Positions 8,836 to 56,806 of a stretch of DNA of 64,000 nt are shown piece after piece; positions within the stretch are counted from its first letter, which is position 1; each line of letters starts with the position of its first letter. Below the pieces are notes generated by a model. The model searched no databases. It saw only the letters and a program-made list of their open reading frames with translations, and was not told the DNA's origin. Origin of the DNA: Eubacteriales bacterium (GTDB lineage: Bacteria; Bacillota; Clostridia; Oscillospirales; CAG-272); contig JAZORZ010000046.1 in assembly GCA_045656885.1 (NCBI GenBank), forward strand, positions 25-64,024, read 5' to 3'. The position numbers and the translations under genes were made by a program.

Positions 8836-8853
8836 AAATATTTTCATTATATA

Positions 8854-8882
8854 TTGACAATCTCCATTTTTTGTGATACAAT
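8854..8882 (+). promoter_or_regulatory. Sigma-A type promoter of the valS leader
   Basis: TTGACA, 17 nt spacer, TACAAT. Confidence 0.6.
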
Positions 8883-8884
8883 AA

Positions 8885-9151: not shown

Positions 9152-9195
9152 GTCAAAAAATAATTTGCACATATATTTTCAGGAGGTCTGTTAAA

Positions 9196-23637: not shown

Positions 23638-25398
23638 ATGAAAAAACTGAGTTTTTTGTTAGCAATCATTCTGCTGTTATCTGTACCGCTAATGACGGCA
23701 TGCAAGCGTCAAGTCCCACCACAAGAGACACCGCAGGTACAAACAACAACCGAAGCCACTACACCGCCCGTTATCGATCAACCCGTGGTGCATGCAAGCA
23801 TTTCGGCGGAGCAGTTGGCAAGCTATGAGATCATCTATGCAAAAGACTCCTCAAAGGAAGTCAAAACGGCTCTGCAAGCCATTCCGAATATTCTTTTTGA
23901 TGCCTACGGAGTCATTCTCAATCAACGCTCCGACCTCTTTTACGAGGGCGTTGCATCCTTGGCAAAGGGGCAGTATGAAATTCTCATCGGCCAAACCAAC
24001 CGCGAGGAGAGTGCAACCTTCCTTTCCAATCTGAAATGGGACGATTACGGTTACGGCATTGTTGGCGATAAGCTCGTCATCGCAGGCAAAAACGAGGACG
24101 GCACGCTCAAGGCACTGCGTGCATTCCTTGCGCACATCGAAGGGAATACGGATGAAGTGTTCTTCACCAACCAAAATCAACTGCTTGTGCAAAAGCAATA
24201 CCCCTATCAAAACATCACGATCAACGGCATTGCGGCAACCGATCTTGCTATTCTTTGTAACGAGGAGGAGCTTGGCGGTTTGGCGCAAATTATCCGCGAT
24301 GCTATCATCGAGTCATGCGGCATTGCCGTGCCGATCGTAACCGATAGCCCCGAGGATAGCGTGCAAAATAAAATCGTCATCGGGCACACCAATATGATCT
24401 TCATTGATCCCGCACCCGAAGACATTATCTATCCCACAGGCAAGGAGTTTTACATCAGTCAGTTTGCAGGCGGCATTTTTGTTGATGCCAACACATCAGC
24501 GGGATATTATTCTGCCGCTTCGTACATAGTCACATCGATTTCTCCCGATTGCAAGGGCAGTGACGTTGTTGTGCTCGAGCAAGGAAAACACATGGGCAAG
24601 GATGCACTCCCCGTAATGAGCTTTAACCTGATGGCGGGCTCGCAAAGCAATCCTGAGTCCAAGCGTCTTGACGCCGTTGTAGAGATCATTCTCAAATACC
24701 GTCCTGCAGTCGTTGGTGTGCAAGAGGCGACCGACACTTGGATCGCTCTTTTGAATCAACGCCTTGGTGACATTTACACCATCGTAGGTGACGGCAGAAA
24801 TGAAACAAGGGGAGACGAGCACAGTGCCATTCTGTATATCACCGCAGAGTTTGATTGCATCGAGAGCGGAACAAAGTGGCTCTCCGATACCCCCGACGTT
24901 CCGGGTTCTAAATTTGCAGAATCCGATTACACGCGCATCATGACCTACGTGCACCTCTCTCGCAAGAGTGACGGCCGAGAATTTTTGCACGTCAATACAC
25001 ATCTTGATTACGGCACGACCGATGCAAAAGAAGCCGTAAAGGTCGAACAAATGGAGGTGCTTTTCCGCGAGATCGGAAAATTCTCTTACCTTCCCACCGT
25101 TATCACGGGTGACTTTAACGCTACGGTTGATTCTCCTGTATACAACCGAATTCAGCAAGAAGGATACCACAATTTCGGCGCCGAATTTCTCGAAACGTCC
25201 CCCACCTATCACGGCCTTATGGGTACCACGGGCGAGCCCAGCCACATTGATTTCATTCTTTACAACGGTCGAATATACAATGATTACTACTTGATGGATA
25301 TGTATTACCGCATTTGCAACGAGCGTGTAGATAACGAAAACGTATCTGACCACTATCCCATTTTAACCGTTTTGTATTTCTCCCCCACAGGGAAATAA
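23638..25398 (+). CDS. Lipoprotein with an N-terminal duplicated alpha/beta region and a C-terminal EEP domain, paralog 1
   Basis: Signal/lipobox MKKLSFLLAIILLLSVPLMTAC. EEP motifs: MSFNL, VGVQE, VNTHLD, TGDFN, SDHYP. Confidence 0.88.
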   Translation: MKKLSFLLAIILLLSVPLMTACKRQVPPQETPQVQTTTEATTPPVIDQPVVHASISAEQLASYEIIYAKDSSKEVKTALQAIPNILFDAYGVILNQRSDLFYEGVASLAKGQYEILIGQTNREESATFLSNLKWDDYGYGIVGDKLVIAGKNEDGTLKALRAFLAHIEGNTDEVFFTNQNQLLVQKQYPYQNITINGIAATDLAILCNEEELGGLAQIIRDAIIESCGIAVPIVTDSPEDSVQNKIVIGHTNMIFIDPAPEDIIYPTGKEFYISQFAGGIFVDANTSAGYYSAASYIVTSISPDCKGSDVVVLEQGKHMGKDALPVMSFNLMAGSQSNPESKRLDAVVEIILKYRPAVVGVQEATDTWIALLNQRLGDIYTIVGDGRNETRGDEHSAILYITAEFDCIESGTKWLSDTPDVPGSKFAESDYTRIMTYVHLSRKSDGREFLHVNTHLDYGTTDAKEAVKVEQMEVLFREIGKFSYLPTVITGDFNATVDSPVYNRIQQEGYHNFGAEFLETSPTYHGLMGTTGEPSHIDFILYNGRIYNDYYLMDMYYRICNERVDNENVSDHYPILTVLYFSPTGK

Positions 25399-25418
25399 CG
25401 TAAAAGGAACTTTGAGGT

Positions 25419-27236
25419 ATGAAAAAAATCAGTTTTTTGATAGTTGTTTTAATGCTTGCGCAATGCTTCCTTTTGGTTGCATGCAATTCGAACGAGCATA
25501 TTCAAAATGAGACTACACCGGATTTGACTACCTCCACCTCAACCACGCCCAACGGAACGGCGCCTCAAGAAACGACGCCTCAAGAAACGACACCTGAAGT
25601 AACGACTCCCGAGCAAATCGATCCTGTTGGCCCCTATGCTGACGCGCAAATTGAGGCAACTGACATTTCCAAATACACGCTCATTTATGCACAACTCAAT
25701 TCTCAATCGGTCGTCGATCAGCTTTTGCAGATTCAAGCGCAAATAGCAGCTATGTATGGCAATGAGCTTAGCGCTCAAACCGATGACTGCTCGGTTAGTG
25801 ATTTTGAAATTCTGATCGGTGATACCAACCGCGAAGAGAGCAAGAGCTTTTTGCAAGGACTTCTTTTTGAAGACTACGGCTATGCGATCATTGGCAACAA
25901 GATCGTCATTGCGGGAAACACCATGCAGGGAACCGTTAATGCGGCAAAGCTGTTTTTGGAGCATTTGAAGGACGGCGACCACAGCGAGGTATTCTTCAGC
26001 AATCAAAACCAATATCTCTATCGCCACCCTTATACGCATGATTCGTTTGTTATTAACGGTATCGATGCATCGCGCGCAAAGCTCGTTGTAAACACAGAGG
26101 GAGCTGATATGCAAATTGCAAAGAGCATTGCCTACAAGTCGCTGGAGCTTTGCGGTCGCACTCCCCAAATCGTTACCGATGCAGAGGTTTCTTCTCAAGA
26201 TACCTTGATCATTGTAGGCGCCTCTCTCCACGTTCCCGCGGCTATGCAAGCCGAGTGGAATACCGCAAAGGCAAGCGGCGGATGGGCGTATTCCTATTAC
26301 ATAGGCAGTAACAATACCGTTGTTTGGATCAACACCGACACGCAGGAGGGATATAACGCTTTGAATTACAATGTTATTTCTTCGATCAATGCGACTGCAG
26401 GTGCAAGCCTGCAGCTTGACACAGGACTTGTTCAAGTACCGCCGACCTTCTCGGTTATGAGCTTTAACGTTTACGTCAGCTCCTTCAATGCGGCGCGTAC
26501 ACAACGAGTTCTCGATACGATTTTGGAGAACGCTCCGTCTGTATTTGGCGTACAAGAAGCAAGCGTTGCATGGATGAACGCATTGAATAGCGGCTTGGGC
26601 GATATTTATGCCACTGTTGGCGTAGGTCGCGATGGCGTTGGCGTAGGCGAGCACAGTGCTATCTTTTACCGCAAGGATCAGTTCACCTTGATTGAAAGCG
26701 GTACAAAATGGCTCTCCTATACGCCTGATGTGGTCGCTTCCAAGCTTTCGCAGGCAAATTACCCCCGTATTATGACGTATGCTGTTTTGGAACGAAATTG
26801 TGATGGCGTTCAATTCCTTTACGTCAACACGCACCTTGATCATGACGGCAAAAACGGCATTGAAGGTGGAGAAAAGGTAAGACAAGAGCAGATCGAAATT
26901 TTGATCGCCGAGATCAACAAGCTTGGTAACTACCCAACGATCGTAACGGGTGACTTCAACGTTACACAAGAGGCATCGGCTTACACAACCATGATAGCCA
27001 ATGGATTTATTGACGCATCCCGCGTTTCCAAGGCGGGTGAGAAAAAGCCCACTTATAACGGCATGAACGATAACTATGAGGGCGTTACCATCGACTATAT
27101 TTTTGTTTCGGGCTCCTTGGCAAACTCTGTAGATGCCTACACCGTTTGCCCCGCAAAGAGAAACGATGAGTGGGTATCCGACCACAATGCCATTGTTGCA
27201 ACAATCACGTTACCGATTCCCACAACCCAAAAATAA
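25419..27236 (+). CDS. Lipoprotein with a C-terminal EEP domain, paralog 2
   Basis: Signal/lipobox ...FLLVAC and a TPQET-repeat linker. EEP motifs: MSFNV, FGVQE, VNTHLDH, TGDFN, SDHNA. Confidence 0.88.
   Translation: MKKISFLIVVLMLAQCFLLVACNSNEHIQNETTPDLTTSTSTTPNGTAPQETTPQETTPEVTTPEQIDPVGPYADAQIEATDISKYTLIYAQLNSQSVVDQLLQIQAQIAAMYGNELSAQTDDCSVSDFEILIGDTNREESKSFLQGLLFEDYGYAIIGNKIVIAGNTMQGTVNAAKLFLEHLKDGDHSEVFFSNQNQYLYRHPYTHDSFVINGIDASRAKLVVNTEGADMQIAKSIAYKSLELCGRTPQIVTDAEVSSQDTLIIVGASLHVPAAMQAEWNTAKASGGWAYSYYIGSNNTVVWINTDTQEGYNALNYNVISSINATAGASLQLDTGLVQVPPTFSVMSFNVYVSSFNAARTQRVLDTILENAPSVFGVQEASVAWMNALNSGLGDIYATVGVGRDGVGVGEHSAIFYRKDQFTLIESGTKWLSYTPDVVASKLSQANYPRIMTYAVLERNCDGVQFLYVNTHLDHDGKNGIEGGEKVRQEQIEILIAEINKLGNYPTIVTGDFNVTQEASAYTTMIANGFIDASRVSKAGEKKPTYNGMNDNYEGVTIDYIFVSGSLANSVDAYTVCPAKRNDEWVSDHNAIVATITLPIPTTQK
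25563..25607 (+). repeat. 3 x 15-bp in-frame tandem repeat (TPQET/TPQET/TPEVT linker)
   Basis: CCTCAAGAAACGACG twice, followed by CCTGAAGTAACGACT. Confidence 0.85.
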
Positions 27237-27315
27237 AACAAGCAGCATACATCAGCATCCGGCTTTTGGAGCTTGCTCTCCAATCCGACAAAATGTAAAA
27301 AAGGAGTAAACGGAT

Positions 27316-29103
27316 ATGAAAAAAGTGAGTTTACTGTTGGCAGTTTTAATGCTTATGCAATGCTTCTTTTTAGTAGCTTGCAACTCCAATAAAAACCAGG
27401 AAACCACTCCCGAGGTAACCTCTTTCGAGGCGACCACCCCTGCCGAAGCACCGGTAGAGCCCGATAACAGCATTAAAATTTTGGCGGCTGATATTTCCAA
27501 ATACAATCTCATTTGTGCACAGCGCACCCCTGCCAACATCATGAGCCAGTTCTGGCAGCTGCAGTCGCAGATCAAAAAGATGTATGGCACAGAACCTCTT
27601 GCCGAAACCGATTATTTGGAAGAGATCGAGTTTGAGATCCTCGTTGGTGCTACCAACCGTAAAGAGAGCCAAGATTTTTTATCGGGGCTTCTTTGGGACG
27701 ACTACGGCTACACCATTGTGGGCAACAAAATCGTTATCGCGGGTCACACCGCCGAAGGTACGCTCTCTGCTATTAAGCTTTTCTTGGAGCACATTAAGGC
27801 GGGGGACCACACCGAGGTATTCTTCAGCAACAAAAATCAGTATTTGTTCTGTTACCCTTACGTTTCCGATACCTTCCTTATCAACGGCATTGACGTTTCT
27901 CGCGCAAAGATCGTTGTTAACGGTGGGGGAAGTGACAAGCAGATCGCACAGATCCTTTCCGATAAATCCCTGGAGCTTTGCGGTCGCCGCCCCGAGATCA
28001 TCACCGATGCCGAGGTGACAGAAGGGGATAAGCTGATCGTCATTGGTTCGTCTGCACACGTTCCTGCTGCAATGCAAACAGAATGGGACGCCGCGCAGGA
28101 AACAATCGAGGGACAGTTCTCTTACTACATCAACAACACAGCGGATATTCTGTGGATTCATACCATCGTTCTTGAGGGTTACAGTGCCATCAACCGTAAT
28201 ATTTTGCCGTTGGTACAATCCAACTCCACGGCAACACTCACACTCGAAACAGGACTTGTCAAGGTTCCTCAGATTTTCTCTGTAATGAGCTTTAATGTTT
28301 TTGTAAGCTATGCAGATGCTGCACGCAAGCAGCGTGTTATCGATACCATTCTCGAAAACACACCGTCTGTATTTGGTGTACAGGAGGCGAGCGTTGACTG
28401 GATGAACACCCTCAAAAAGGGACTTGGCGATGTTTATACCGCTGTTGGTGAAGGCCGCGACGGTGGAAATAACGGTGAATACAGTGCTATCTTTTATCGC
28501 ACCGATAAGTTTACTCTGATTGAAAGCGGTACAAAGTGGCTTTCTGACACTCCCAACACGGTGGCTTCCTACTATACCTATAAGGATCCCGAAACAAACA
28601 TCGTACACCGTGCAAACTTCCCGCGCATTATGACCTATGCTGTTTTGGAACGTAAGAATGACGGTGTGCGTTTCATCTACGTCAACACGCACCTTGACCA
28701 CAACGGTAACAACAGTGTAGAAGTTGCGGAACAAGTGAGACAAGGACAAATCGAAGTTCTGCTTGCCCAAATTGAAGAACTCAGAACCAAGTTTGGCAAC
28801 CTGCCCACTGTTGTAACGGGTGACTTTAACGTTACTCCCGAAGCAACTGCCTACACCACAATGATTGGTGCGGGCTTCCTCGATTCCTCACACGTTGCAA
28901 AAGAGGGGGAAATCAAACCCACCTATAATGATAGGAACGACAGTTATGAAGGTGCTATCATCGACTACATCTTTGTATCTCCCGAGCTTGTAAGCGCAGT
29001 TGATACCTACACCGTTTGCCCGGCAAAGAGAGACGGACAGTGGATCTCCGACCACAACGCAATCATTGCAACCATTACGATGCCCGTTCCCGAAGCCGAA
29101 TAA
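27316..29103 (+). CDS. Lipoprotein with a C-terminal EEP domain, paralog 3
   Basis: Signal/lipobox ...FFLVAC. Roughly 60-65 percent identical by eye to paralog 2 across the EEP domain, with the same catalytic motifs. Confidence 0.88.
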   Translation: MKKVSLLLAVLMLMQCFFLVACNSNKNQETTPEVTSFEATTPAEAPVEPDNSIKILAADISKYNLICAQRTPANIMSQFWQLQSQIKKMYGTEPLAETDYLEEIEFEILVGATNRKESQDFLSGLLWDDYGYTIVGNKIVIAGHTAEGTLSAIKLFLEHIKAGDHTEVFFSNKNQYLFCYPYVSDTFLINGIDVSRAKIVVNGGGSDKQIAQILSDKSLELCGRRPEIITDAEVTEGDKLIVIGSSAHVPAAMQTEWDAAQETIEGQFSYYINNTADILWIHTIVLEGYSAINRNILPLVQSNSTATLTLETGLVKVPQIFSVMSFNVFVSYADAARKQRVIDTILENTPSVFGVQEASVDWMNTLKKGLGDVYTAVGEGRDGGNNGEYSAIFYRTDKFTLIESGTKWLSDTPNTVASYYTYKDPETNIVHRANFPRIMTYAVLERKNDGVRFIYVNTHLDHNGNNSVEVAEQVRQGQIEVLLAQIEELRTKFGNLPTVVTGDFNVTPEATAYTTMIGAGFLDSSHVAKEGEIKPTYNDRNDSYEGAIIDYIFVSPELVSAVDTYTVCPAKRDGQWISDHNAIIATITMPVPEAE

Positions 29104-31888: not shown

Positions 31889-32066
31889 CAAATCAATTTT
31901 CTGAGCGCGCGGGGTCTTGGTGGTGCCCACGCGCTTGCGATAGCAAAAGCGAACCTTGCGTTCGCACCGACTGTCTATTAGTAAAGCAACGACTTATATA
32001 TATGATATATTTGCGAGAAAGTTTTTGAAGGGGTGTGGGGGAACTTTTCTCAAAAAGTTCCCCCAC
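31889..32066 (-). repeat. Structured repeat unit, copy 6 (reverse, solo), upstream of recA
   Basis: Terminal hairpin GTGGGGGAACTTTTtctcAAAAAGTTCCCCCAC at 32035-32066. In reverse complement, the internal features read ACAGTCGGTGC, GCGAAC-gcaag-GTTCGC, TTTTGCTATCGC and CACCACCAAGACCCC. Confidence 0.85.
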
Positions 32067-32175: not shown

Positions 32176-32204
32176 TTGACAAGCGTCCCAAAATGGAGTA
32201 TAAT
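32176..32204 (+). promoter_or_regulatory. Sigma-A type promoter of recA
   Basis: TTGACA, 17 nt spacer, TATAAT. Confidence 0.65.
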
Positions 32205-32265
32205 AGGGACAGAAAAAATAAAAGGGAAAGCGGTGGCACTATCCACCGCGTGAAAGGATCATATT

Positions 32266-34049: not shown

Positions 34050-34066
34050 AAAAAAATAAAAAATCA

Positions 34067-34101
34067 GTACCCACGCGAAATTCGCGTGGGTACCTTTTTT
34101 A
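34067..34101. terminator. Bidirectional terminator shared by recX (+) and the phage-like module (-)
   Basis: A-run, then GTACCCACGCGAA-a-TTCGCGTGGGTAC, then a T-run. The module's last stop codon (34107) lies only a few nt away. Confidence 0.85.
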
Positions 34102-34106
34102 TTTGG

Positions 34107-34505
34107 TCAGGTCAAGCCGTAGCGGTCAACGATCGCGCCAACCGAGGCGGGGAGCGTTTTGCGAATGTCAAGAATGGCACTGATGTAGCGGTCAAAGAAT
34201 TTATCGCTCATCTCCTCGTTCTCGTCTATCACAAGTCCGGATGCGAGGTGATAGATCGCCGCAGGGGCAAACACATTGCAGAGTGGAAACTCATCATTGG
34301 GGTTCAGCGTGACGGCATCGGTAGAGATGACCTTGCTTTCCATACCGTTTGCTTTGCGGTAGTCGCCGTCAAGCTTAGCATATTGGGTTACAAAGGCGGC
34401 AAGCAAATAGGGAGCACGCGAATTGTAATCTTCATTGCCAAAGGTGATGGTGGTATTTTCGCAAACAATCGATATAGCGCTCTTGATCAAGTCTTGGCAG
34501 ATCAT
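34107..34505 (-). CDS. Phage-module hypothetical protein (possible head-tail adaptor/connector by position)
   Basis: 132 aa, immediately downstream of the capsid gene. The function call rests on position only. Confidence 0.6.
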   Translation of the reverse strand: MICQDLIKSAISIVCENTTITFGNEDYNSRAPYLLAAFVTQYAKLDGDYRKANGMESKVISTDAVTLNPNDEFPLCNVFAPAAIYHLASGLVIDENEEMSDKFFDRYISAILDIRKTLPASVGAIVDRYGLT

Positions 34506-34518
34506 TTTCTACCTCAAA

Positions 34519-35355
34519 TTATGCGTCGAGAACGTTGAGGTCGAGCAGTACCATTTCGTTGGGGTAAACGACCTTTGCGCCATAGAGGTGCAAGCCCTTA
34601 ACGGCATCGGCAAAGCGGAGCTCGGGGCGGTATGCATCGATCTCGGAGAGCTGCTCTGCAAAGGCGATTGCACGCTTGGTGCGAGCCAGGCACTTGTGTT
34701 CATAACCGGTGTCGCCTTCCATCTTCACCACGTTGTTGGAAACAAAGATCTTGCAGCCACCAATTGCGCCAATGCAACCGGTCTCCATAACGTCGGTGTT
34801 GTCGGTGGAAAGGGTAACCTTTGCCTTCATAATCAAGCCCGCGATCTCGGGAGTTACCTCAATAACGATATCCTCGGGGTCAGCTACGTTCTTGGTAAAG
34901 AGCTTTGTTCTGGCATCGATGATGAGGTTTACGATATTCTCGGTAGTAACGTCATCGCACTTGATGCTGCTGCCTGCCTGACCGTAAAGACGGTAAATAT
35001 ACTCGTCCGCATCGTTTGCAAGCGCGCTTGCCGCATTCTTCATAGCGAGCTCCATCAGTTTGGGAGAGGACTGTGCACGGTCGATGTCATCAATTTGGAA
35101 GTTAAAGTACTTTGCTTGGTCGATCTTAAGCTCGCGAGCGTTGTCGGAGAGCGTGGAAGGGGAGTTCATGTTTGCGTTTTTAACATATTCGGAGACGACA
35201 ACGTCACCAACGCCGCAAATGCGAACGGTGTTGCCTTTTTCGCGAATTTCGCCTTCGTAATCGCGATTGCAGTTTGCAACGCCGATGTACTTTTTGTCAA
35301 GCTCCTGATAGAGGTTTTCGCTCCAGATGGTGGGAATGAAATTGGTAATAGCCAT
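34519..35355 (-). CDS. Phage major capsid protein
   Basis: 278 aa. The N-terminus MAITNFIPTIWSENLYQEL..NRDYEGEIREKGNTVRI is the FIPxIWS-type signature I associate with P22-coat-like/HK97-fold capsid families. It follows the scaffold gene. Confidence 0.8.
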   Translation of the reverse strand: MAITNFIPTIWSENLYQELDKKYIGVANCNRDYEGEIREKGNTVRICGVGDVVVSEYVKNANMNSPSTLSDNARELKIDQAKYFNFQIDDIDRAQSSPKLMELAMKNAASALANDADEYIYRLYGQAGSSIKCDDVTTENIVNLIIDARTKLFTKNVADPEDIVIEVTPEIAGLIMKAKVTLSTDNTDVMETGCIGAIGGCKIFVSNNVVKMEGDTGYEHKCLARTKRAIAFAEQLSEIDAYRPELRFADAVKGLHLYGAKVVYPNEMVLLDLNVLDA

Positions 35356-35387
35356 AATGTTTTTTTCCTTTCTTTATTCAAAAAATG

Positions 35388-36017
35388 TTAGTGCCATTTT
35401 TGCATCGAGCGCATAATCTTGGGCAGATTTGCGCGTACCTCCGCCGGGGTCATGGCACGCACCTCGGCAGGGGAAAATTCAACGCTCTCGGCGTTTTTTG
35501 CAGCGCCCGCAGAGCGAGCACGGTTTTCGGCATTCCTCTCGACTGCCATTTTTTGCAAGAGCGTACGGCGATGCTCGGCAAGAGCAAATGCCGCGGCAAG
35601 CGAGTTGCCATCTTGAACGCCTTGCCACACCTCTTTTGAAAGCGAGGCGATGGGCGTCTCGGGGTAGAGAACCGAAAACTCGTTATACTGACGCTCAATA
35701 TGCTCCATTTGGGCAAGTTGCGCGTTTTTGGCATCAAGCTCTTGTCGGAGGCGGTTCAGCTGACCTCGCAGCTCGTCCAATTCGCTTTTTTGATGCGTGG
35801 AATCAGGATCTTCGCAATCAAAATCAGGATCTGCGCAGGTATCTGCAAAAATGCCAAGAGCAGCTTCATTTGGTTCTCCGAGAGGTGTTTTTGTTCCTTC
35901 GGTTGTGAGGGGCTTTGCTGTCTGCGGCGCAGGCGGCGTCTCCACAAAATCGTGCGTCGCGCTCGCATCTTCATTTTGATCTTCGAGAACAGTGCATTCT
36001 TCATTCATCAGTTGCAA
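35388..36017 (-). CDS. Phage scaffolding protein
   Basis: 209 aa, acidic, with a coiled-coil segment ELDELRGQLNRLRQELDAKNAQLAQMEHIERQ. It lies between portal and capsid, and its start overlaps the portal 3' end by 17 nt. Confidence 0.7.
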   Translation of the reverse strand: MQLMNEECTVLEDQNEDASATHDFVETPPAPQTAKPLTTEGTKTPLGEPNEAALGIFADTCADPDFDCEDPDSTHQKSELDELRGQLNRLRQELDAKNAQLAQMEHIERQYNEFSVLYPETPIASLSKEVWQGVQDGNSLAAAFALAEHRRTLLQKMAVERNAENRARSAGAAKNAESVEFSPAEVRAMTPAEVRANLPKIMRSMQKWH

Positions 36018-37551
36018 CTCCTTTCTCTTTGAGTTTTTCGAGCAATACCTCGCGGTTGACGAGCATGCCCGTGGGGAGCAGTTCTACGTATTCACTCACG
36101 CTCAAGTGACCGTCGTCCAACAGCTTGTTCAGTGTAGAAACGGTAGCGGCGGGGGAATAACGGTCGATGCTTCCTGCGTGAACGGTAGCATTGATGAGTG
36201 CGTTTTTGAGGAGCGCGTAATCAAGTGCTTCGGCACTTACTTCGCCACTCTTTTCCAAAACCGAAAGCATACGCTCGGTGGGGCAGTAGGTGCAAAGCAT
36301 ATCTGCCCAAATGGCGGCAAGCTCGCCAATACAACGGCAAAAGTGAACGCGAACGTGCTCCAAGGATACCGAAGCGGCAGATTGCAGCGTGAGAATTGCA
36401 CTGGTGTTGTGTGCACGTTCGTCACCCAAAGCCGAGTCGGTTGCACCCATCATCGATTTGGTGTTTTCGATGACATCGGTGATGAGATCGAGATATCCGT
36501 CCTGCATCTGTCCTACACCGACTACCGAAACGGCATCTGCCATGTTGCCGCCGCCAACGGCGCCAATGGCTTCGCCAACCTCATTGGACCACTCGGGAAT
36601 ACGTGTTTTGTCGTAAACAACCTTTGAAAAGGCAGTATTCTGCATATGCTTGAGTGCCATTGCGTAGGCGGTGTTGATGCATTTTTGGTTGGCGACCATA
36701 TCGCTTACCGATGCCGTGCCGTGAAAACAGTTTTTGGCATTGTGCCAATGAAAATAGGCAATGGGGTAGAGTCGCAAGCCGGTGTTCGCACGGCGTATCA
36801 GGCAATTTTTTGTGGTCTTTTCAAAAATGACCTCGCCGTTCTCGCGGAAAAAGCGAATGAGAAAGGTTGCCTTTTCTTCTCCCTTCAGCTCTGCTTTGCC
36901 AAGGTCGGCGGTGTAGGTACCCATGTTTTCGTCGTCGCTGACGATGCGGGCGACGTCTTTTTCACTCACGCCTGCAAGCAGTGCTTCGCGGCGCAAGCTT
37001 TCCACAGTTGCGCGACCTGCCAGCATTACGTACTTTTGACTTTGAATGTCGGAAGAGTTGACGTCTGCAACAAACAAGTTGGTCGAATCCACAACGTCGG
37101 TGTGAATGTCACCGTCAAAGGCGTGACCGTTGCGACGGTCGGGATCCCACCAAGCGTAAAAAACGCCGTCGCCCGAAATGGCGGCATCTAAGAGTGCCTG
37201 ATAGGAAAGTGACTCCATATGCCCATGCTTCCAACGCCAAGCCGCGTTGCGGTTGAGCACGTCAATACCGCGGGCAACGGCAGCTCTCGCCTCGTCGGAG
37301 GCAACAAAGGGCAGGGCTTCATCGGAGTAGGAGATGGAAATATCTCCGCCGATAACGGATGCGACCTGGTGGTCGGTAATCCGTCGAATAAAGTTAAAAA
37401 CGGGGCGTGGGAGGTCGGCATTTACGCCATACCAATGGTCTCCGCGATAAAAGCGCTCATTGCGTCTTACCGTTTCATAAAGACCGATGCGTTGTTTGTA
37501 GGCCTTGCCTGCCTCATAAGCACGCCACGCCAGTTCGTGTGCTTGAGAAAT
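36001..37551 (-). CDS. Phage portal protein; the ORF extends 97 codons upstream of the first GTG and has no canonical start (candidate ATT at 37551)
   Basis: The track ORF is 36001-37260. The frame stays open up to TAG at 37569-37567. The upstream extension translates as ISQAHELAWRAYEAGKAYKQRIGLYETVRRNERFYRGDHWYGVNADLPRPVFNF..., a portal-like N-terminus. AAAGGAGG (37566-37559) lies 7 nt before the ATT. Confidence 0.75.
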   Translation of the reverse strand: MSQAHELAWRAYEAGKAYKQRIGLYETVRRNERFYRGDHWYGVNADLPRPVFNFIRRITDHQVASVIGGDISISYSDEALPFVASDEARAAVARGIDVLNRNAAWRWKHGHMESLSYQALLDAAISGDGVFYAWWDPDRRNGHAFDGDIHTDVVDSTNLFVADVNSSDIQSQKYVMLAGRATVESLRREALLAGVSEKDVARIVSDDENMGTYTADLGKAELKGEEKATFLIRFFRENGEVIFEKTTKNCLIRRANTGLRLYPIAYFHWHNAKNCFHGTASVSDMVANQKCINTAYAMALKHMQNTAFSKVVYDKTRIPEWSNEVGEAIGAVGGGNMADAVSVVGVGQMQDGYLDLITDVIENTKSMMGATDSALGDERAHNTSAILTLQSAASVSLEHVRVHFCRCIGELAAIWADMLCTYCPTERMLSVLEKSGEVSAEALDYALLKNALINATVHAGSIDRYSPAATVSTLNKLLDDGHLSVSEYVELLPTGMLVNREVLLEKLKEKGVATDE

Positions 37552-37577
37552 AACGATTCCTCCTTTCTAAAAGATGA

Positions 37578-39314
37578 TTAAGGCATGGTATGAATGTCAA
37601 GTCGGTAGAACTCGACGGGGTTTGATGCGTATACAAAGATGGTAAAACGCAAAAAGCGGTAGCGGTGGGAGCCAAAGCGCATTCCTTGTACGTGTGTGTT
37701 GGCATTGGAATCGGGGGGAATCAAGTCGAAACTTTTGCTGTTGCGTTCGGTTTCAAACAACACGCTTCCTTCCTCTTCATTTCCTCCAAAATACAAATAT
37801 GCGCGCGTTGAACGACGGGGAACGTCGGGGGTTCCAAAGTCGAGGTAGCTGCTCCTGTAAAAAGCGGATATAGGCGTATCGGAATCCTTGTTATGGGAGC
37901 TGTCAAATACAAAAATATCGTTGTTTTGTGCAAAGCCGAAGCCCTCCGAATTTTTGAAAAAGAAGCTTGCGGGAATATTACTAAAACGATACCATTCCTC
38001 GCTTTCCGTGTTCCAAACAAGCACGTCACCGGCTTGATTTTCGGGGTCTCGCATCCAAATCTCACCGTCGCCAACGTTCCAAAAGAGCTCTGCACGCTTT
38101 GCAAAATCGGAAGAGATTTTTCCTCTTAAGCCCACCGAAAGTCGTTCAAAGGAGAGCTGCTCGGGGCGGGCTACCGATGCCGTGATGCGGTAAATATCAT
38201 TCCCCATCACCGCCAATATGCTGTTTTGGTAGGAGATCGCGCCGCGTGGGGAGACACACCCAATATCCTTTGCCGCAAGTGTTGTCAACACCTCGCCTTT
38301 TTCAAAGGTCAAGCTCCAAATACGGTCAGGGGCAAAGGCGAGAACAGTGTCATACAAGGGGCACATAGCGGTTACGGGATTTGCACTGTCACCCAAAAAG
38401 AGCACGTCGTCCGCACAAAAATAAAGGGAAGATGCCTCAGGGTAGAGCGCGTGGCAGGAGGAGAGCATGTAGTCGGTTACGGGACGAGTGCAAAATACGC
38501 GAGCATCGTTGCCCCAAAGCAAAAGCTTGTTTTCGTTCCCACGGGAGTAAATAAAGGAAAGCTGTGCCGCAAGGATCTTTTGACGAATCTCCTCGTTCAG
38601 TCCAACAGTAAAGCCGACCTCCAAAACGGCAGGCGGAGTTGCCGTATTGAGGGTGATCTTGTCGGTTTTGGGCGTGAAGGTGTAGTTGACGATGGGCTTT
38701 CCGTCGGCCTTGACGACGTCTACCGTATCGGCGTAATAGGGCAAACGAAAAACGGTTGATGCATTCGAGTTGTAATAGTGCACACGCAAACGGGGGGTGA
38801 GCAGATTGATATCCTCATTGACGTCGCCATAGGAAGTAGGGTTCCATTGGTATCCGTAAAGCGGAACGTAAGCTTCTACAATGTCAAATCTGTTCGGCCA
38901 GGGGAAGTAACGGTAAATGTTTTTTCCGTCAAGCAGATACAAATCGTCCATGTAGATGCAAAAATGCACAAGCCCTTCCGAGGTAGAGAGGGTTCCCGCA
39001 ACGCTTTCGGTCATCGACTCCCCGTCCAATCGGTAGACCGTGTTGCCCACCACAGCAAAAAAGAGCGAGTTCCCTTGAAACGTTCCTTGCCAAATGCCAC
39101 GCACCTTTTGATCACTCGAAAAGTGTTTTTCGAGCTTGTAGCCCATACGTGCTTTGAGGATGCCACCGGGCAGAATTTGAAAATTGCACATATCCTCGGC
39201 CCCTTCGGGGGAGAGCGGTGCGTGTTTTCCAAGACCGCCAAATTTGCAAGAGAGAATTTTCAGGGCAGAATGCCTTGAATTGAGTCTTGCCATAAGTTGA
39301 AAAACTCCTTTCAT
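37578..39314 (-). CDS. 578-aa phage-module protein with repeated beta-propeller-like blade motifs, function unknown
   Basis: Recurrent motifs GNTVYRLDG, GKNIYRYF, DRIWSLTF, GNDIYRIT, GDGEIWMRD and NNDIFVFD. It lies between terL and portal. An alternative start at 39293 is preceded by AAAGGAG. Confidence 0.75.
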   Translation of the reverse strand: MKGVFQLMARLNSRHSALKILSCKFGGLGKHAPLSPEGAEDMCNFQILPGGILKARMGYKLEKHFSSDQKVRGIWQGTFQGNSLFFAVVGNTVYRLDGESMTESVAGTLSTSEGLVHFCIYMDDLYLLDGKNIYRYFPWPNRFDIVEAYVPLYGYQWNPTSYGDVNEDINLLTPRLRVHYYNSNASTVFRLPYYADTVDVVKADGKPIVNYTFTPKTDKITLNTATPPAVLEVGFTVGLNEEIRQKILAAQLSFIYSRGNENKLLLWGNDARVFCTRPVTDYMLSSCHALYPEASSLYFCADDVLFLGDSANPVTAMCPLYDTVLAFAPDRIWSLTFEKGEVLTTLAAKDIGCVSPRGAISYQNSILAVMGNDIYRITASVARPEQLSFERLSVGLRGKISSDFAKRAELFWNVGDGEIWMRDPENQAGDVLVWNTESEEWYRFSNIPASFFFKNSEGFGFAQNNDIFVFDSSHNKDSDTPISAFYRSSYLDFGTPDVPRRSTRAYLYFGGNEEEGSVLFETERNSKSFDLIPPDSNANTHVQGMRFGSHRYRFLRFTIFVYASNPVEFYRLDIHTMP

Positions 39315-39355
39315 TTTGAACTGTCACAAAGAAAACCCATGTCCTTCGCTCGCTC

Positions 39356-40675
39356 TTAAAAGAGCGAGCGCTCTTTTTTAGCAAAACGAAAGGTGTTGTT
39401 GGCGGCCGGTTGTGTGGGAAGATTGGTGCGACTCATTACGGCGTAGCGCAAGGCCTCCGGCGCATGTGTTACGGCGTGGGGCTCGTCCGAGGCATCCTCG
39501 GGGCGCACTGCGTCGCAAAGCAGAGCCGGCATCGAGCGGATCAGCTCGGTACAAGCCGACGATATCCGAAGCGCAGGCGCACCGTCCGAGGGGCTTAAAT
39601 ATTCGCGAAGAACACGCCAACCCGGAACGCGGCGGTTATCGGCGGCGCACATCGGTGGCATACATGGGGCCGATTGCATCACCTCAAATCCGCTTTTTCC
39701 GCTGTCCTGACGGCGGTTCCAAAGGTCGGGGGAAGCAACCGCATAGCGCACCTCTACTCCTTGACACAAAAGCGCCACCTGCCGTGCCGCCTCACTCAAA
39801 GTAAGATTGGGGCGGCAAACTTCCTTTACCGCAAACAAATTGCCCTTGGCATCGTATCCCATCAAAAGGGCGGCAAGCATATCAAAGCCGTAGTCAAACG
39901 CCACAAAATAATGCAGTCCGTCGGGGATCTTCTCGGGGGAACAGATGTGTACGTCGGGGTCGAATTCCGAAAAGAACTGTCCCTCAAATACGTCCCAGCT
40001 TCCATGCAACCACGCATCACGCAATTTTTGCGGCAAGCTTTCCAACTGCCGAACATAGTCGGGGTCAGCTCGCAGCAAAATCGGATTGTCATACACCTGC
40101 GCCGAGATGAAGAGATAATCGTCGGGATCTTCATCTTCTCGAAATTTTCGCTCCACAAAGAGTCGCTTCACCCAAGCGTGACCAATGCCACCGGGATTGC
40201 AGGTCAGGTACATTCTGCGCGGTGCAACAGAAGTGCCACGAAGACAGGCCTTAAAAATAGAAAACTGATATTCGCTCAGCTGCGTTGCCTCGTCGATAGC
40301 AATAATGTCGTACTCTTGTCCTTGATAACGCAAAACATCCCGTGTGGACGCGCAATAGCCAAGAGCTATGCTGCTGCCGTTTGGGAGCGTGAGGAGTTTG
40401 TCCCCCTCACTGTAAGAGAGGAGCGTGCCGTACTCATCCAAAAGCGGGCGCACGTGGTTGGCTTTGAGCTCCGCATAGGAACGCCGCACCAATAGGCACC
40501 GAATGCCGGGGTAGCAGAGACAAAGCCCGATCAGCTTGCGCCGCAGAGCCCAGGATTTTCCGCCGCCGCGAGCACCACCGTAAGCTGTGTAACGGGCACG
40601 GGATGCAAAAAACAGCTTTTGCCGCTCGTTGGGTACGCCGCGGATGTGCAGGATTCCCTCGTTATCTTCTCTCAC
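39356..40675 (-). CDS. terL: Phage terminase large subunit
   Basis: Walker A YGGARGGGKSWAL, Walker B-like DIIAIDEATQ, and a C-terminal nuclease region. The GTG start overlaps the terS stop (GTGA), with GGAGGA upstream. Confidence 0.9.
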   Translation of the reverse strand: MREDNEGILHIRGVPNERQKLFFASRARYTAYGGARGGGKSWALRRKLIGLCLCYPGIRCLLVRRSYAELKANHVRPLLDEYGTLLSYSEGDKLLTLPNGSSIALGYCASTRDVLRYQGQEYDIIAIDEATQLSEYQFSIFKACLRGTSVAPRRMYLTCNPGGIGHAWVKRLFVERKFREDEDPDDYLFISAQVYDNPILLRADPDYVRQLESLPQKLRDAWLHGSWDVFEGQFFSEFDPDVHICSPEKIPDGLHYFVAFDYGFDMLAALLMGYDAKGNLFAVKEVCRPNLTLSEAARQVALLCQGVEVRYAVASPDLWNRRQDSGKSGFEVMQSAPCMPPMCAADNRRVPGWRVLREYLSPSDGAPALRISSACTELIRSMPALLCDAVRPEDASDEPHAVTHAPEALRYAVMSRTNLPTQPAANNTFRFAKKERSLF

Positions 40676-41064
40676 GTACCGTCCTCCAAAATGTCGTGCT
40701 CAAACACAAGCCGCATTTGTCCGCAGGACGCCGCCGAGCTTTCTTCCTTTTCATCGTACCCCAATCGCTTTTTGAGATAATAGGAAAGCAGGGACGGCGA
40801 GGGCGATGAGATCAGAAGCTCATCTTCAAGCGTGGTACAAATGAGATCGTAAAGCCGCGGGGCATCGGTGCAGAGCTTTTGCAGGTATGCAATGCCGCAA
40901 CCAAGAAAGCGACAAAAGCCCGCAAGGTTGGCAAACTGCCCCCCTGACTTTTTGCTGTCTGCCTCAGGCGGCGGACGACAAGCGCCTACGTATTCTTCAA
41001 GCAGAGCCAAAAGCCGCTTTTGCCGCGCGGGAGTATCAAGCGTTTTTGGCAATTTCTTTGCCAT
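40672..41064 (-). CDS. terS: Phage terminase small subunit (HTH-type)
   Basis: 130 aa. ..ANLAGFCRFLGCGIAYLQKL.. is a typical TerS HTH region. It lies immediately upstream of terL, with GGAGGTG upstream. Confidence 0.7.
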   Translation of the reverse strand: MAKKLPKTLDTPARQKRLLALLEEYVGACRPPPEADSKKSGGQFANLAGFCRFLGCGIAYLQKLCTDAPRLYDLICTTLEDELLISSPSPSLLSYYLKKRLGYDEKEESSAASCGQMRLVFEHDILEDGT

Positions 41065-41130
41065 ACAAATAGCATCACCTCCAATGGTTCGGTTTTCTTT
41101 GTGACGCCCTTATTGTACCGCCCTTTTTTG

Positions 41131-41170
41131 TGCCAAAAGATGCCAATGTGTGCCACTTTGTGCCAAATAA
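41131..41170 (-). promoter_or_regulatory. Four TGCCA (minus strand TGGCA) motifs phased at exactly 10 bp, upstream of terS
   Basis: TGCCAAAAGA TGCCAATGTG TGCCACTTTG TGCCAAATAA, with TGCCA at 41131, 41141, 41151 and 41161. Confidence 0.7.
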
Positions 41171-41193
41171 AAAGCCCCGCGATTTTCGCGAGG
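41163..41193 (-). terminator. Terminator-like hairpin in the leader of the phage-like module
   Basis: Minus strand reads CCTCGCG-aaaat-CGCGGGG followed by CTTTTTATTT. Confidence 0.55.
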
Positions 41194-41288
41194 AAAGAGA
41201 AGAGTTATGGTTTTGTGCTGATAAACCCAAACACAACCAAAAGTTGTAAAAGGCGCCCATAAACAAACTTTGCAGTTCTTGAAATGAC

Positions 41289-41325
41289 AATAAACATGTG
41301 CTATAATATAGTCAAGATAAGCGCT
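41289..41325. promoter_or_regulatory. Overlapping divergent promoters (XRE gene rightward, phage-module leader leftward)
   Basis: Plus strand: TTGAAA (41289-94), 17 nt spacer, TGc-TATAAT (41312-17). Minus strand: TTGACT (41325-20), 17 nt spacer, TATTGT (41302-297). Confidence 0.55.
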
Positions 41326-41355
41326 TATCAATCTAAACAAAGGTGGATTGAATAT

Positions 41356-42435
41356 ATGGAAATTAACTTAAAAGAAAAATTACGCTCATTGAGACAGCAG
41401 AAAAGCATTACCCAAGAAGCTCTTGCCAACCATCTTGGAATTACACCGCAATCCGTTGGAAAGTGGGAGCGCGGCGAAGGTTTTCCGGATATTACTTTGT
41501 TACCTAAAATCGCGTTTTATTTTGATGTAACCGTTGATGAATTACTTTGTGTAGATAAAGTAAGAATGGAAGAAGCAATATGCGAATATCAGCGACAAAG
41601 TAAAATTTGTTGTCAGAATGGTGAAAATCAAAAGAACCTTGAAATTTGGGAAAAGGCATATTCCGAATTCCCGACGGATTGCCGCGTTATCGAAGGACTT
41701 ATGTATGCTATCAAACGAAAGTCAGAATATCCTTGTCCAAAGGATGAAGCCGAACGCATTATTGCTCTTGGCGAAACGCTTTTGGAAAAGTCAACCGATG
41801 CAATGCAAAGGGAACACGCTGTTCAATGTTTATGCTATACTTATCATGGCATTGATAGCGAAAAAGCTTTATATTACGCAAATATGGGCGGAGGCATCCA
41901 TGAAACAAGGGAGGGGCTAAAAGCCACGATTCTGAAAGGTGAAGAAGGCGTTGTTGCTTGCCAAAAATATATTGAAACTCTAATTCACAGTGTATCAATG
42001 TCTGCTGTAAATATGACCTCAAAAACAAATTTTTCACCTGAAGAAAAGATTGAAGCATATACTTTTGCCATTGATATACTAAAACGCTTGTTTTCTGATG
42101 ATAATGTCGGCTTTTATGCCAACGATCTTTCGCTTTATTATCGTTACATCGCACTTCAATATACCCAATTAAACGATAAAGAAAATGTCTTAAAAAACCT
42201 TAAAGAAAGTTGTCGCTATGCAGTTATTGAAGCAAATCTGAATGATATGGATTACACTGCGCCAATGGTAAACCGCTTGAAACACAAAAAACAAAACATT
42301 TCAAAAAATTACAAAGGAAATGCTTGCAATTTGAGAATTGAAGGTTTGAAAGATAAAAGGTTTGATTTTGTGCGAGAGGAAGATGCATTCAAACAAATCA
42401 TCGCAGATCTCGAAAAACACGCTGAAAAAGAATAA
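41356..42435 (+). CDS. XRE-family HTH regulator with a long helical-repeat (TPR-like) C-terminal domain, paralog 1
   Basis: 359 aa. LRQQKSITQEALANHLGITPQSVGKWERGEGFPDITLLPKIAFYFDVTVDELL. The gene looks AT-rich by eye. AAAGGTGG lies upstream of the ATG at 41356. Confidence 0.85.
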   Translation: MEINLKEKLRSLRQQKSITQEALANHLGITPQSVGKWERGEGFPDITLLPKIAFYFDVTVDELLCVDKVRMEEAICEYQRQSKICCQNGENQKNLEIWEKAYSEFPTDCRVIEGLMYAIKRKSEYPCPKDEAERIIALGETLLEKSTDAMQREHAVQCLCYTYHGIDSEKALYYANMGGGIHETREGLKATILKGEEGVVACQKYIETLIHSVSMSAVNMTSKTNFSPEEKIEAYTFAIDILKRLFSDDNVGFYANDLSLYYRYIALQYTQLNDKENVLKNLKESCRYAVIEANLNDMDYTAPMVNRLKHKKQNISKNYKGNACNLRIEGLKDKRFDFVREEDAFKQIIADLEKHAEKE

Positions 42436-55823: not shown

Positions 55824-55858
55824 TTTTTTGGAACAAAAAACAGGGATTGGTGGCAAGG

Positions 55859-56632
55859 ATGTACTACAACAAAGTGGAAATTTGCGGGGTGAATACCTCA
55901 AACCTCAAGGTGCTCTCGGACGAGGAAAAAAGAGAACTGCTCCTGCGCATGAAAAAGGGAGACGAGGAAGCGCGCGCCGAGCTCATCAACGGCAATTTGC
56001 GCTTGGTGCTATCTATTATTCAGCGCTTTACAAGCAGAAAAGAAAACCTCGATGACCTCTTTCAAGTCGGTTGTATCGGACTTGTCAAGGCGGTGGATAA
56101 CTTTAATACCGACCTCGACGTTAAATTTTCGACCTACGCAGTTCCTATGATCATTGGAGAAATTCGTCGCTACCTGCGCGATAACAATGCCATTCGCATC
56201 AGCCGCTCGGTCAGGGACCTTGCCTACCGTGCTCTGCAAGCGCGCGAGGAGCTGATTGCTTTGCACGAAAGCGAGCCGACAGTGGAGCAGATTGCCGCAC
56301 ATTTGGGAGAAAAGAAAGAAGCAGTCGTGCACGCCCTCGATGCCATTGCCGAGCCAATCTCGCTCTACGAGCCCGTGTTCAACGATAACGGAGACGCGCT
56401 TTATTTGATGGATCAGCTTTCCGACTCCTCGTCAGGCGACGAGCTTTGGCTGGAGAACATCGTTCTCCGCGAGGCGATGATGCGTCTGAACGAGCGCGAG
56501 CGCAAGATCATCAACCTGCGCTTTTACAAAAACAAAACGCAAATGGAAATCGCCGAGGAGATCGGCATCTCGCAAGCCCAGGTCTCCCGCCTTGAAAAAG
56601 GCGCGCTCCTCAAAATGAGAAAGGAATTGTAA
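55859..56632 (+). CDS. sigG: Sporulation sigma factor SigG
   Basis: MYYNKVEICGVNTSNLKVLSDEE...NGNLRLVLSIIQRF...DDLFQVGCIGLVKAVDNF..KFSTYAVPMIIGEIRRYLRDNN..GISQAQVSRLEK closely tracks B. subtilis SigG as I recall it. Confidence 0.9.
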   Translation: MYYNKVEICGVNTSNLKVLSDEEKRELLLRMKKGDEEARAELINGNLRLVLSIIQRFTSRKENLDDLFQVGCIGLVKAVDNFNTDLDVKFSTYAVPMIIGEIRRYLRDNNAIRISRSVRDLAYRALQAREELIALHESEPTVEQIAAHLGEKKEAVVHALDAIAEPISLYEPVFNDNGDALYLMDQLSDSSSGDELWLENIVLREAMMRLNERERKIINLRFYKNKTQMEIAEEIGISQAQVSRLEKGALLKMRKEL

Positions 56633-56806
56633 ACAAAAGGCAGTTTTATATGGAAAGACATAGCTGATTTCGGCTATGTCTTTTTTGAATAGAAAAATAC
56701 TACGATTGGTAGAATTGAGTCTATGTTGCGGTTATTGATTTATAATTCAAAACGCTGTATAATATACTCAGACGCGTCGGAAAAACTTAATTTGGAGGTT
56801 AATACT

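Follow-up and report, generated by a model that had tools for sequence, protein, structure and literature searches.

A conserved seven-gene operon for a P22-like head and short-tail core in uncultured gut and rumen Clostridia, a candidate gene transfer agent-like packaging module

The DNA analysed here, called the window below, is a stretch of 64,000 nucleotides (64 kb) from contig JAZORZ010000046.1 of the Eubacteriales bacterium assembly GCA_045656885.1 (Clostridia; Oscillospirales; CAG-272). It carries a minus-strand operon of seven phage-type genes, hereafter the module, in the order terS, terL, nozzle, portal, scaffold, coat, and adaptor. The seven open reading frames (ORFs) run from 41064 to 34107, as placed by an initial annotation made from the sequence letters, and their neighbors are recX with recA on one side and an XRE gene followed by ppa, obg, and der on the other; all of these but recA were named there too. 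The remainder of the 64 kb is housekeeping DNA (trmD, uvrC, gatCAB, recA/recX, ppa, obg, der, sdaA, galK, aroA, a sporulation-type sigma factor, and an aminoacyl-tRNA synthetase). The module is host-like in codon usage and GC content, with a GC content at third codon positions (GC3) of 0.51–0.63 vs. 0.59 ± 0.04 for the flanking housekeeping genes, while the adjacent XRE gene is AT-rich (GC3 0.31); these values uphold a contrast that had been drawn by eye. The features of the locus are listed in the direction of transcription of the module.

41175–41193, minus strand: intrinsic-terminator-like hairpin followed by a T run
41130–41165, minus strand: four hexamers at an exact 10-bp spacing (TGGCAC 41165–41160, TGGCAC 41155–41150, TGGCAT 41145–41140, TGGCAC 41135–41130)
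41112–41117, minus strand: −10-like hexamer TACAAT, exactly 12 nt past the fourth hexamer
40672–41064, minus strand: TerS-like protein, 130 amino acids (aa), with the Shine-Dalgarno sequence GGAGG at 41082–41078
39356–40675, minus strand: large terminase TerL, 439 aa (Pfam Terminase_6N and Terminase_3; phrog_979 at 1e-44)
37578–39293, minus strand: predicted podovirus tail nozzle/hub, 571 aa (AlphaFold2 and Foldseek)
36001–37551, minus strand: portal, 516 aa, ATT start (Pfam P22_portal, PF16510, 1e-10; phrog_156)
35388–36017, minus strand: scaffolding-like protein of 209 aa (TTG start) or 206 aa (ATG at 36008)
34519–35355, minus strand: major capsid (coat) protein, 278 aa, P22-gp5-like, HK97 fold (phrog_267 at 2e-46)
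34107–34505, minus strand: tail adaptor-like protein, 132 aa, predicted four-helix bundle of the P22 gp4/Sf6 gp7 type (AlphaFold2 and fold matches)
34066–34094, either strand: bidirectional terminator common to the module and recX, 13-bp stem

Profile searches on the module proteins supported the coat protein, the portal, and TerL. The Walker A and B motifs of TerL were kept in 67/67 homologues. Homologues of the coat protein carry the name "P22 coat protein - protein 5 domain," and the protein itself was 45% identical to the capsid protein of phage D6E. TerS gave no direct profile match, and a PDB sequence-profile search was empty too; its identity is supported indirectly, by the match of 4 of 40 homologues to phrog_606 ("terminase small subunit") and by the translational coupling to terL. 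By eye, it contains a helix-turn-helix (HTH)-like motif conserved as PNLAGFCR.LG. Profile searches with the scaffold gave no match, and the protein is called scaffolding-like from its position between portal and coat, the same as in P22.

The two proteins without an obvious function were assigned by predicted structure. The nozzle was modelled from the start at 39293 (571 aa) with a 50-sequence alignment; the AlphaFold2 model had a predicted local distance difference test score (pLDDT) of 90 and a predicted template modelling score (pTM) of 0.86. The top 27 Foldseek matches in the PDB were all podovirus tail nozzle or hub proteins, among them those of Pa223 (1e-20), T7 gp12 (2e-16), and P22 gp10 (8eap_D, 6e-16, template modelling (TM) score 0.69 on the target), as well as Sf6 gp8, VP1, and SU10. 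A PDB sequence-profile search yielded a single weak match, also of nozzle type (9vyg_M, E 0.007). The predicted fold identifies this protein as a podovirus tail nozzle of the P22 gp10/T7 gp12 type. The model of the 132-aa protein was a four-helix bundle (pLDDT 86), and its top 20 PDB fold matches were all podovirus adaptors (Sf6 gp7, P22 gp4, LME-1, and A4), with probabilities of 0.72–0.98 and weak E-values of 0.1–1.3; matches among predicted viral structures (BFVD) included "Tail accessory factor GP4." A PDB sequence-profile search gave nothing for this protein. In its model it resembles the P22 gp4/Sf6 gp7-type adaptor, and its gene comes after that of the coat, in the way that gp4 comes after gp5 in P22. 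The initial description of the block as tail-less, with no tail gene anywhere, is corrected by this fold evidence, as two of the seven genes encode tail-core proteins. The module is a P22-like head and short-tail core: a P22-type portal and coat were found together with a gp10-type hub and a gp4-type adaptor, the last with weak E-values but a consistent rank. Variants of this gene set occur. In four distant relatives (L073, L078, L083, and L084), the module consists of terS, terL, portal, scaffold, coat, and adaptor, without the nozzle, and in L083 and L084 the ORF at the adaptor position is enlarged to 416 aa.

As described initially, terS and terL overlap by 4 nt (40672–40675), and the 17-nt overlap of the scaffold with the 3′ end of the portal is likewise correct for the TTG start; from the next ATG, the start called in relatives, the overlap is 8 nt. 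The nozzle ORF taken mechanically starts at 39314 and is 578 aa long, the length first reported. This frame is present, but homologues match the second ATG at 39293, which is most likely the start and gives a protein of 571 aa. No ORF has an internal stop, and the portal start codon is the one irregularity, both in accordance with the first description. The portal frame is open up to 37566 without ATG, GTG, or TTG near its 5′ end. The start is ATT (37551–37549), 7 nt after the GGAGG of the Shine-Dalgarno sequence AAAGGAGG (37566–37559). Both elements are conserved across the clade of the window (coat identity 79–95%), and more distant relatives have ATG. The ATT start probably keeps portal translation low. 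Gene callers shorten the portal in every public record seen (405–489 aa vs. 516 aa).

At its downstream end, the operon is closed by the bidirectional terminator, which lies between the recX stop and the stop of the last module gene and is the hairpin already noticed as common to both. At its upstream end, the hairpin at 41175–41193 would shield the module promoter from ppa-side transcription; the same order of hairpin and hexamer array was seen in relatives without the XRE gene. A further perfect palindrome with a 10-bp stem (39347–39370) overlaps the terL stop, between terL and the nozzle gene. A T run is missing on the coding (minus) strand, and the palindrome may serve RNA processing or stability instead of termination.

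A scan with a coat protein pattern of a collection with one genome per GTDB species returned 276 matching stretches, of which the best 80 were examined; these, together with metagenome and IMG/VR contigs that were fetched, are the loci compared below. All of the best 80 belonged to uncultured Clostridia of the gut or rumen, with the labels Oscillospiraceae, Eubacteriales, Ruminococcus sp., Christensenellaceae, or Lachnospiraceae. Coat relatives number thousands, and the top 120 (75–93% identical, all approximately 278 aa) were from Clostridia metagenome bins. An exhaustive profile search with the nozzle retrieved, at E ≤ 1e-30, 563 sequences that each represent a 50%-identity cluster, almost all of them full length. 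The seven-gene order of the window was kept in every locus with enough DNA, save the four without a nozzle. Apart from the seven module families, recX and recA were the most frequent neighbors (about 17 loci). Other recurrent neighbors, considered as possible regulators or tail genes, were all housekeeping families (ppa-obg-der, HPr kinase, phosphopantetheinyl transferase, and fumarase). Tail, lysis, integrase, or replication families recurring beside the block were not found in the approximately 80 loci, nor was any integrase, replication gene, or att site. The window likewise contained no integrase, replication, lysis, or fiber gene, no att-like flanking repeats, and no tRNA gene, which bears out the corresponding part of the initial annotation. 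No complete prophage collinear with the block was seen at the related loci. In IMG/VR, no complete phage carrying the module was present; the matches were block fragments of 4–10 kb and one distant 40-kb contig, and terminal repeats were not found on the contigs with the module. In the public records seen, the genes are unannotated or have generic names ("hypothetical protein," "P22 coat protein domain"), and we found no description of the seven-gene module in the literature.

Counted where the reading frame was bounded, intact genes made up 62/62 for terS, 65/65 for terL, 65/65 for the nozzle, 73/73 for the portal, 81/81 for the coat, and 78/79 for the adaptor; the scaffold was intact in 74 of 77 loci. 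Ratios of nonsynonymous to synonymous substitution rates (dN/dS) were estimated for the window vs. ten close relatives. They were 0.06–0.10 for both terS and terL, 0.05–0.14 for the portal, 0.04–0.13 for the coat, 0.14–0.22 for the nozzle, and 0.08–0.18 for the adaptor, and the flanking recX had 0.05–0.07. Purifying selection was evident over this whole range (0.04–0.22), and the scaffold had a higher ratio (0.35–0.48). The synonymous divergence (dS) of the conserved module genes, 0.5–1.2, was within the range of flanking host genes. In pairwise identity, coat and portal tracked recA and recX (Pearson 0.85–0.94; 14 genomes, 91 pairs), and on a tree of TerL, portal, and coat the recX-adjacent position was spread over a deep clade. 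As in gene transfer agents (GTAs), the module shows vertical inheritance with its host and purifying selection. The divergence that tracks the host, the intact genes, and the conserved synteny argue against a mobile satellite.

The hexamers upstream of terS read on the minus strand TGGCAC aaag TGGCAC acat TGGCAT cttt TGGCAC. No −35 element is present at the normal spacing from TACAAT, which is followed by the conserved GCGTCACA, then by GGAGGTGAT, and then by the terS ATG. The window contained one such array (0.01 expected by chance). Among related loci, 54 of 63 had a four-hexamer array scoring at least 19/24 against its own consensus, a score reached by approximately 1% of random windows, and in 51 of these 54 strong-array loci a TAnnnT box lay exactly 12 nt beyond the array. 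Approximately 1.2 Mb of related loci contained 52 strict arrays, all at terS; a second array-driven operon was found neither there nor in the window. The hexamer varied by clade (TGGCAC, TGAGAC, TGGGAC, TGTCAC, or TGGTAC), with few switches on the tree.

Scanning metagenomes and IMG/VR with the strict TGGCAC array pattern recovered further promoters of the module, late promoters of phages, and unrelated tandem repeats with a 10-bp unit. In real phages, a small gene stood immediately ahead of the array, and an unrelated terS of the Terminase_2 type, with terL and portal behind it, came next. The small gene encoded a protein with DUF1492 and Sigma70_r4 domains in phage L122 and a protein with a weak Sigma70_r4_2 match in phages L131–133; in phage L124, the contig starts within this gene, of which no more than a C-terminal fragment with similarity to the L122 protein was present. 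Late activators of the Ltr superfamily comprise RinA, ArpU, LtrA, LtrB/DUF1492, and LtrC, and the two to four direct repeats that lie just beyond the ltr gene were shown to be both necessary and sufficient for activation of the terS operon (Quiles-Puchalt et al., 2013, PMC3753634). The short direct repeats upstream of the terS promoter of the module are like those of Ltr-dependent late promoters (PMC3753634), and we read the array as putative binding sites of an Ltr-type late-transcription activator. The difference is that the phage repeats begin right behind the end of the ltr gene, an arrangement present in L122, L124, and L131–133, whereas the module has kept the repeats without an ltr gene at its locus or in the window. 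Searches with the phage DUF1492 protein (tblastn and jackhmmer) for an activator gene near the module found one in the close relative L014 and none in the window or the other 79 of 80 loci. This Ltr-like gene of L014 encodes a 136-aa protein with an HTH of the sigma-70 region 4 type, related to the phage DUF1492 activator. It is located a short way upstream of recA and 2.5 kb away from the module, paired with a divergent gene for a CI-like repressor (HTH and S24 peptidase; 13319–14611 of L014), and is absent at that position in the window and the other relatives. The pair could be an SOS-responsive switch for the module. A sigma-54 promoter and a PhoP/PhoB-type box were considered as other identities of the array and rejected, as the hexamer changes by clade and co-occurs with phage ltr genes. 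The XRE gene was rejected as a regulator of the module: it is AT-rich, and its position beside the block is confined, among the genome and metagenome loci fetched, to L008 and L017, the two closest relatives, and to the near-identical metagenome contig L108. On the basis of its distribution, we place it outside the conserved module. One further TGGCAC array (L117, 273–1272) precedes a gene for a 193-aa protein that, by eye, combines a MuF-like head fragment with a barnase-like RNase and is followed by a barstar-like gene; this cassette may be a phage polymorphic toxin under a late promoter.

Among published systems, FpGTA of Faecalibacterium prausnitzii (Borodovich et al., Nat Commun 2026, PMC12946183) comes closest. 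Its operon I spans 10.5 kb with 10 ORFs (terS, terL, portal, a Prp-like gene, coat, nozzle, and others), and operon II, 125 kb away, encodes fibers, a receptor-binding protein, holin, and endolysin; the particles are approximately 40 nm in size, look tail-less, and contain approximately 8.5 kb of DNA (PMC12946183). GTA-like packaging was also reported there for Ruminococcaceae, Oscillospiraceae, and Christensenellaceae, with no locus identified (PMC12946183), and a later preprint describes similar unexplained packaging patterns and, by sequence criteria, candidate clusters in a Coprocola genome. The comparison with the module was made through the family names and the accession order given in the supplement of PMC12946183. 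Both systems are chromosomal operons of gut Clostridia with terS, terL, portal, a gene in the scaffold position, coat, and a P22-gp10-like nozzle (the FpGTA nozzle is annotated against 8eap, and that of the module matches 8eap_D), and replication and integration genes are absent from both. The podovirus-like, seemingly tail-less particles of FpGTA belong to an element that is near-ubiquitous in its host clade. The FpGTA coat, however, is annotated as N4-gp56, whereas the coat of the module is P22-gp5-like and has no match to that NCBIfam family at E ≤ 1, and the order in FpGTA is terL, portal, Prp, and coat with the nozzle later, vs. seven genes with the nozzle between terL and portal in the module. 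On paper the module thus appears similar to FpGTA and departs from it in two annotated features, coat family and gene order. FpGTA also has the second operon for fibers and lysis, of which no counterpart was found for the module in the 64-kb window or in the 10-kb flanks of the approximately 80 loci, and its particles and DNA have been observed. The publication of this podovirus-like, GTA-like element in January 2026 tempers the novelty that the initial annotation had claimed for a locus of this kind.

Other known systems are less similar. With P22 and Sf6, the module shares the gene set and mostly the order, that is, gp3 (TerS), gp2 (TerL), gp1 (portal), gp8 (scaffold), gp5 (coat), and gp4 (adaptor), together with the gp10-like hub; it differs in the nozzle gene, which has moved to between terL and portal, and in the short coat protein (278 aa). 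The gp26 needle, the gp9 tailspike, the gp7/gp20/gp16 ejection proteins, and the lysis and early genes of P22/Sf6 are absent from the module, and needle or plug, tailspike, and ejection proteins were not found elsewhere in the window either. The RcGTA-type elements of Rhodobacter and Caulobacter are also domesticated head and packaging clusters with vertical inheritance and purifying selection, and they have accessory functions and the direct activator (GafA) at other loci. They are, in contrast, siphovirus-like, with an HK97-type head, a tail tube, and a tape measure, comprise about 15 genes, occur in Alphaproteobacteria, and are regulated by CtrA and GafA, where the module has an Ltr-type repeat promoter; an assignment to this type was rejected because the tail of the module is of podovirus type. 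Satellites of the capsid-forming phage-inducible chromosomal island type (cf-PICI) encode terS, terL, portal, coat, and connector proteins of their own and, like the module, no full tail. They also carry an integrase, regulators, a primase or replicase, and att sites and move between genomes; the module lacks all of these, and its connector set, nozzle included, is of podovirus type, unlike that of cf-PICI. A satellite replication module (primase or replicase) and AlpA- or Stl-like regulators were sought and not found at the loci or in the window, and with integrase, replication genes, and att site absent the assignment to cf-PICI-type satellites was rejected. An encapsulin, an HK97-fold shell without portal or terminase and with a cargo enzyme, was rejected too, as portal, TerL, and TerS are present and conserved.

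With respect to the definition of a GTA, phage-derived structural and packaging genes lie in the chromosome and are not accompanied by replication, integration, or excision genes. With respect to control by a cellular regulator, the promoter belongs to the phage Ltr type and is not accompanied by an activator gene at the locus, and L014 alone has an ltr-like gene nearby with a CI-like repressor. We regard the module as very probably selected and particle-forming. It is probably, although with less confidence, a domesticated and vertically inherited GTA-like element ("viriform"), that is, a P22-like podovirus morphogenesis operon reliant on trans-acting factors in a large clade of uncultured gut and rumen Clostridia. 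Of the three readings of the initial annotation, this is the one, a domesticated GTA-like packaging device, that the evidence favors. FpGTA is a precedent for podovirus-type GTA-like particles made by gut Clostridia with a comparable operon (PMC12946183). Judged from its genes, the operon most likely builds small DNA-filled GTA-like particles in hundreds of uncultured gut Clostridia species.

Production of such particles would begin with a trans-encoded activator of the Ltr type (sigma-70 region 4/DUF1492), which would bind the four hexamers, centered near −27, −37, −47, and −57 in place of a −35 element, and turn the promoter on. The sequence predicts a single transcript of seven genes between two terminators. 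Translational coupling and the weak ATT start, both conserved, would hold the portal low relative to the coat. By homology, portal, scaffold, and coat would form a procapsid, TerS and TerL would fill it with DNA, and adaptor and nozzle would seal the portal. Other loci would have to supply lysis and any receptor-binding fibers, needle, or ejection proteins, as they do for known GTAs; failing that, the product would be a non-injecting DNA container. The packaged DNA is expected to be host DNA, with no preference for the module itself.

Several points weigh against this interpretation. The module is known here from genes alone, and all its carriers are metagenome-assembled genomes, in which the search was confined to the loci. 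Among the gene assignments, TerS lacks a direct profile match, the scaffold is a candidate by position alone, and the adaptor was matched with weak fold E-values. Furthermore, lysis, receptor-binding, needle or plug, ejection, and activator genes were found neither in the 64-kb window nor within 10 kb of the module at about 80 loci, except for the ltr-like gene of L014. Because these genes are absent nearby, the particle may be incomplete or non-infectious.

An alternative that we consider unlikely, although worth serious attention, is that the module is immobile and dependent on a helper: the Ltr activator of an infecting or induced phage, with a hexamer specificity (TGGCAC, or TGAGAC in other clades) to which the operon is matched, would switch the operon on in trans, and the lysis genes of this phage, perhaps with its fibers, would release particles with host DNA, or the phage would be hindered by competition for DNA, packaging, or assembly. 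An Ltr-type promoter that has no adjacent ltr gene in 79 of 80 loci or in the window would be explained in this way, as would an operon without lysis and receptor-binding functions, and phages with the identical TGGCAC array and a cognate ltr gene do exist in metagenomes and IMG/VR. The clade-specific hexamers (TGGCAC, TGAGAC, TGGGAC, TGTCAC, and TGGTAC) are consistent with it, but they follow the module phylogeny with few switches, and a co-inherited host regulator fits this pattern equally. Moreover, the ltr-like gene of L014 is chromosomal and stands by a CI-like repressor 2.5 kb from the module, and the array-bearing phages are linked to the module hosts only by the shared array. We hold to be similarly doubtful the broader form of this idea, in which a host-fixed head-and-nozzle operon that has lost its own activator answers either the Ltr of an incoming or resident phage or one SOS-controlled chromosomal ltr gene, as in L014, and converts late-gene expression of the phage or DNA damage into small particles that contain host DNA or sabotage the phage. 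A use other than gene transfer is less probable still; the product could be a particle for DNA storage or release of extracellular DNA, a protein nanocompartment, or a PBSX-like killing particle. The delivery apparatus (fibers, needle, and ejection proteins) is indeed absent from the operon, and the authors of FpGTA too leave DNA delivery by their particles undecided. Against it, the intact TerS, TerL (Walker motifs in 67/67), and portal argue that DNA packaging is selected, with which an encapsulin-like compartment does not fit, and there is no tail sheath or tube able to serve as a tailocin.

The two remaining accounts were anticipated in the initial annotation, which had named a cf-PICI-like satellite and a deletion remnant of a prophage as possible readings. 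A minimal self-packaging element of the capsid-forming satellite type would use the array as the pac site for a TerS ring and package the approximately 7.06 kb from the array to the last stop in a small capsid. TerS proteins often bind phased repeats near terS, the TerS of the module has the HTH-like motif seen by eye, and the length of approximately 7 kb compares with fragments of 4.6–8.9 kb in gut GTA-like particles (PMC12946183). We find this account very improbable. The 12-nt distance between array and −10 box kept in 51 of 54 loci is a requirement of a promoter but not of a pac site; unrelated phages, whose TerS is of another family (Terminase_2), have this array behind their ltr genes; and in TerS of the module, whose putative recognition helix is acidic and hydrophobic, residues tracking the hexamer type were sought and none was found. 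For these reasons we rate a TerS pac site as unlikely. The element would also have to do without integrase, replication gene, and att site, its divergence tracks the host, and the IMG/VR contigs with the module lack terminal repeats, all of which leaves the satellite reading unsupported. Least credible is a functionless, decaying prophage remnant. An isolated block of structural genes with no other phage functions nearby is what such a remnant would look like, but the data already contradict it: at essentially every locus, across dozens of species-level genomes, all seven genes have stayed intact and under strong purifying selection; promoter, Shine-Dalgarno sites, and the non-canonical portal start are all conserved; and a fuller prophage was seen in no relative. 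We exclude decay because of the intact genes, purifying selection, synteny, and host-tracking divergence, and the remnant reading is refuted.

Some further features of the window were observed outside the module. Three AT-rich (GC3 0.31–0.39), paralogue-like regulator genes (41284–42435, plus strand; 56723–57592, plus strand; and 57899–59005, minus strand) encode proteins in which an XRE HTH at the N-terminus is joined to a long C-terminal domain; these genes look recently acquired and show no conservation with the module. A TPR match, under Pfam's own cut-off, was obtained only for the 56723–57592 protein. A T-box leader (Rfam RF00230, 136 bits) lies at 8887–9127 on the plus strand, and because of it the minus-strand ORF 8773–11805 is probably spurious; a T-box-regulated gene probably follows the leader on the plus strand. 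Three tandem paralogous proteins of approximately 590 aa with a C-terminal endonuclease/exonuclease/phosphatase domain are encoded at 23638–29103 (plus strand), and the family (f16) is kept at the same position in relatives. The palindrome CGAAC-CTTGC-GTTCG (31950–31964, plus strand), approximately 300 nt upstream of recA, resembles the Firmicutes LexA (Cheo) box, but its spacer is 5 nt instead of 4 nt; the recA promoter is a perfect TTGACA-N17-TATAAT at about 32177–32205. The sporulation-type sigma factor (55850–56632, plus strand) has sigma-70 regions 2, 3, and 4 and an N-terminus like that of SigG/SigF, which suggests a spore-forming Clostridium-like host.

Sequencing of virus-like particles indicates that gut Clostridia package much host DNA in small capsids, and a gene cluster with particle data is so far available only for Faecalibacterium (PMC12946183). 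For the GTA-like packaging of other lineages, the module is a concrete candidate with a very wide distribution. It is interesting for its breadth, for its minimal gene set, with seven genes for a near-minimal DNA-packaging particle, and for its orphan Ltr-type promoter, whose conserved repeats offer a direct handle on the regulator and on any companion operons. The module allows host-controlled and phage-triggered production of particles to be tested against each other. If production were triggered by phages, the module would represent a new functional class between GTAs, satellites, and defense systems and would provide a genetic basis for the unexplained packaging in gut Oscillospiraceae, Ruminococcaceae, and Christensenellaceae.

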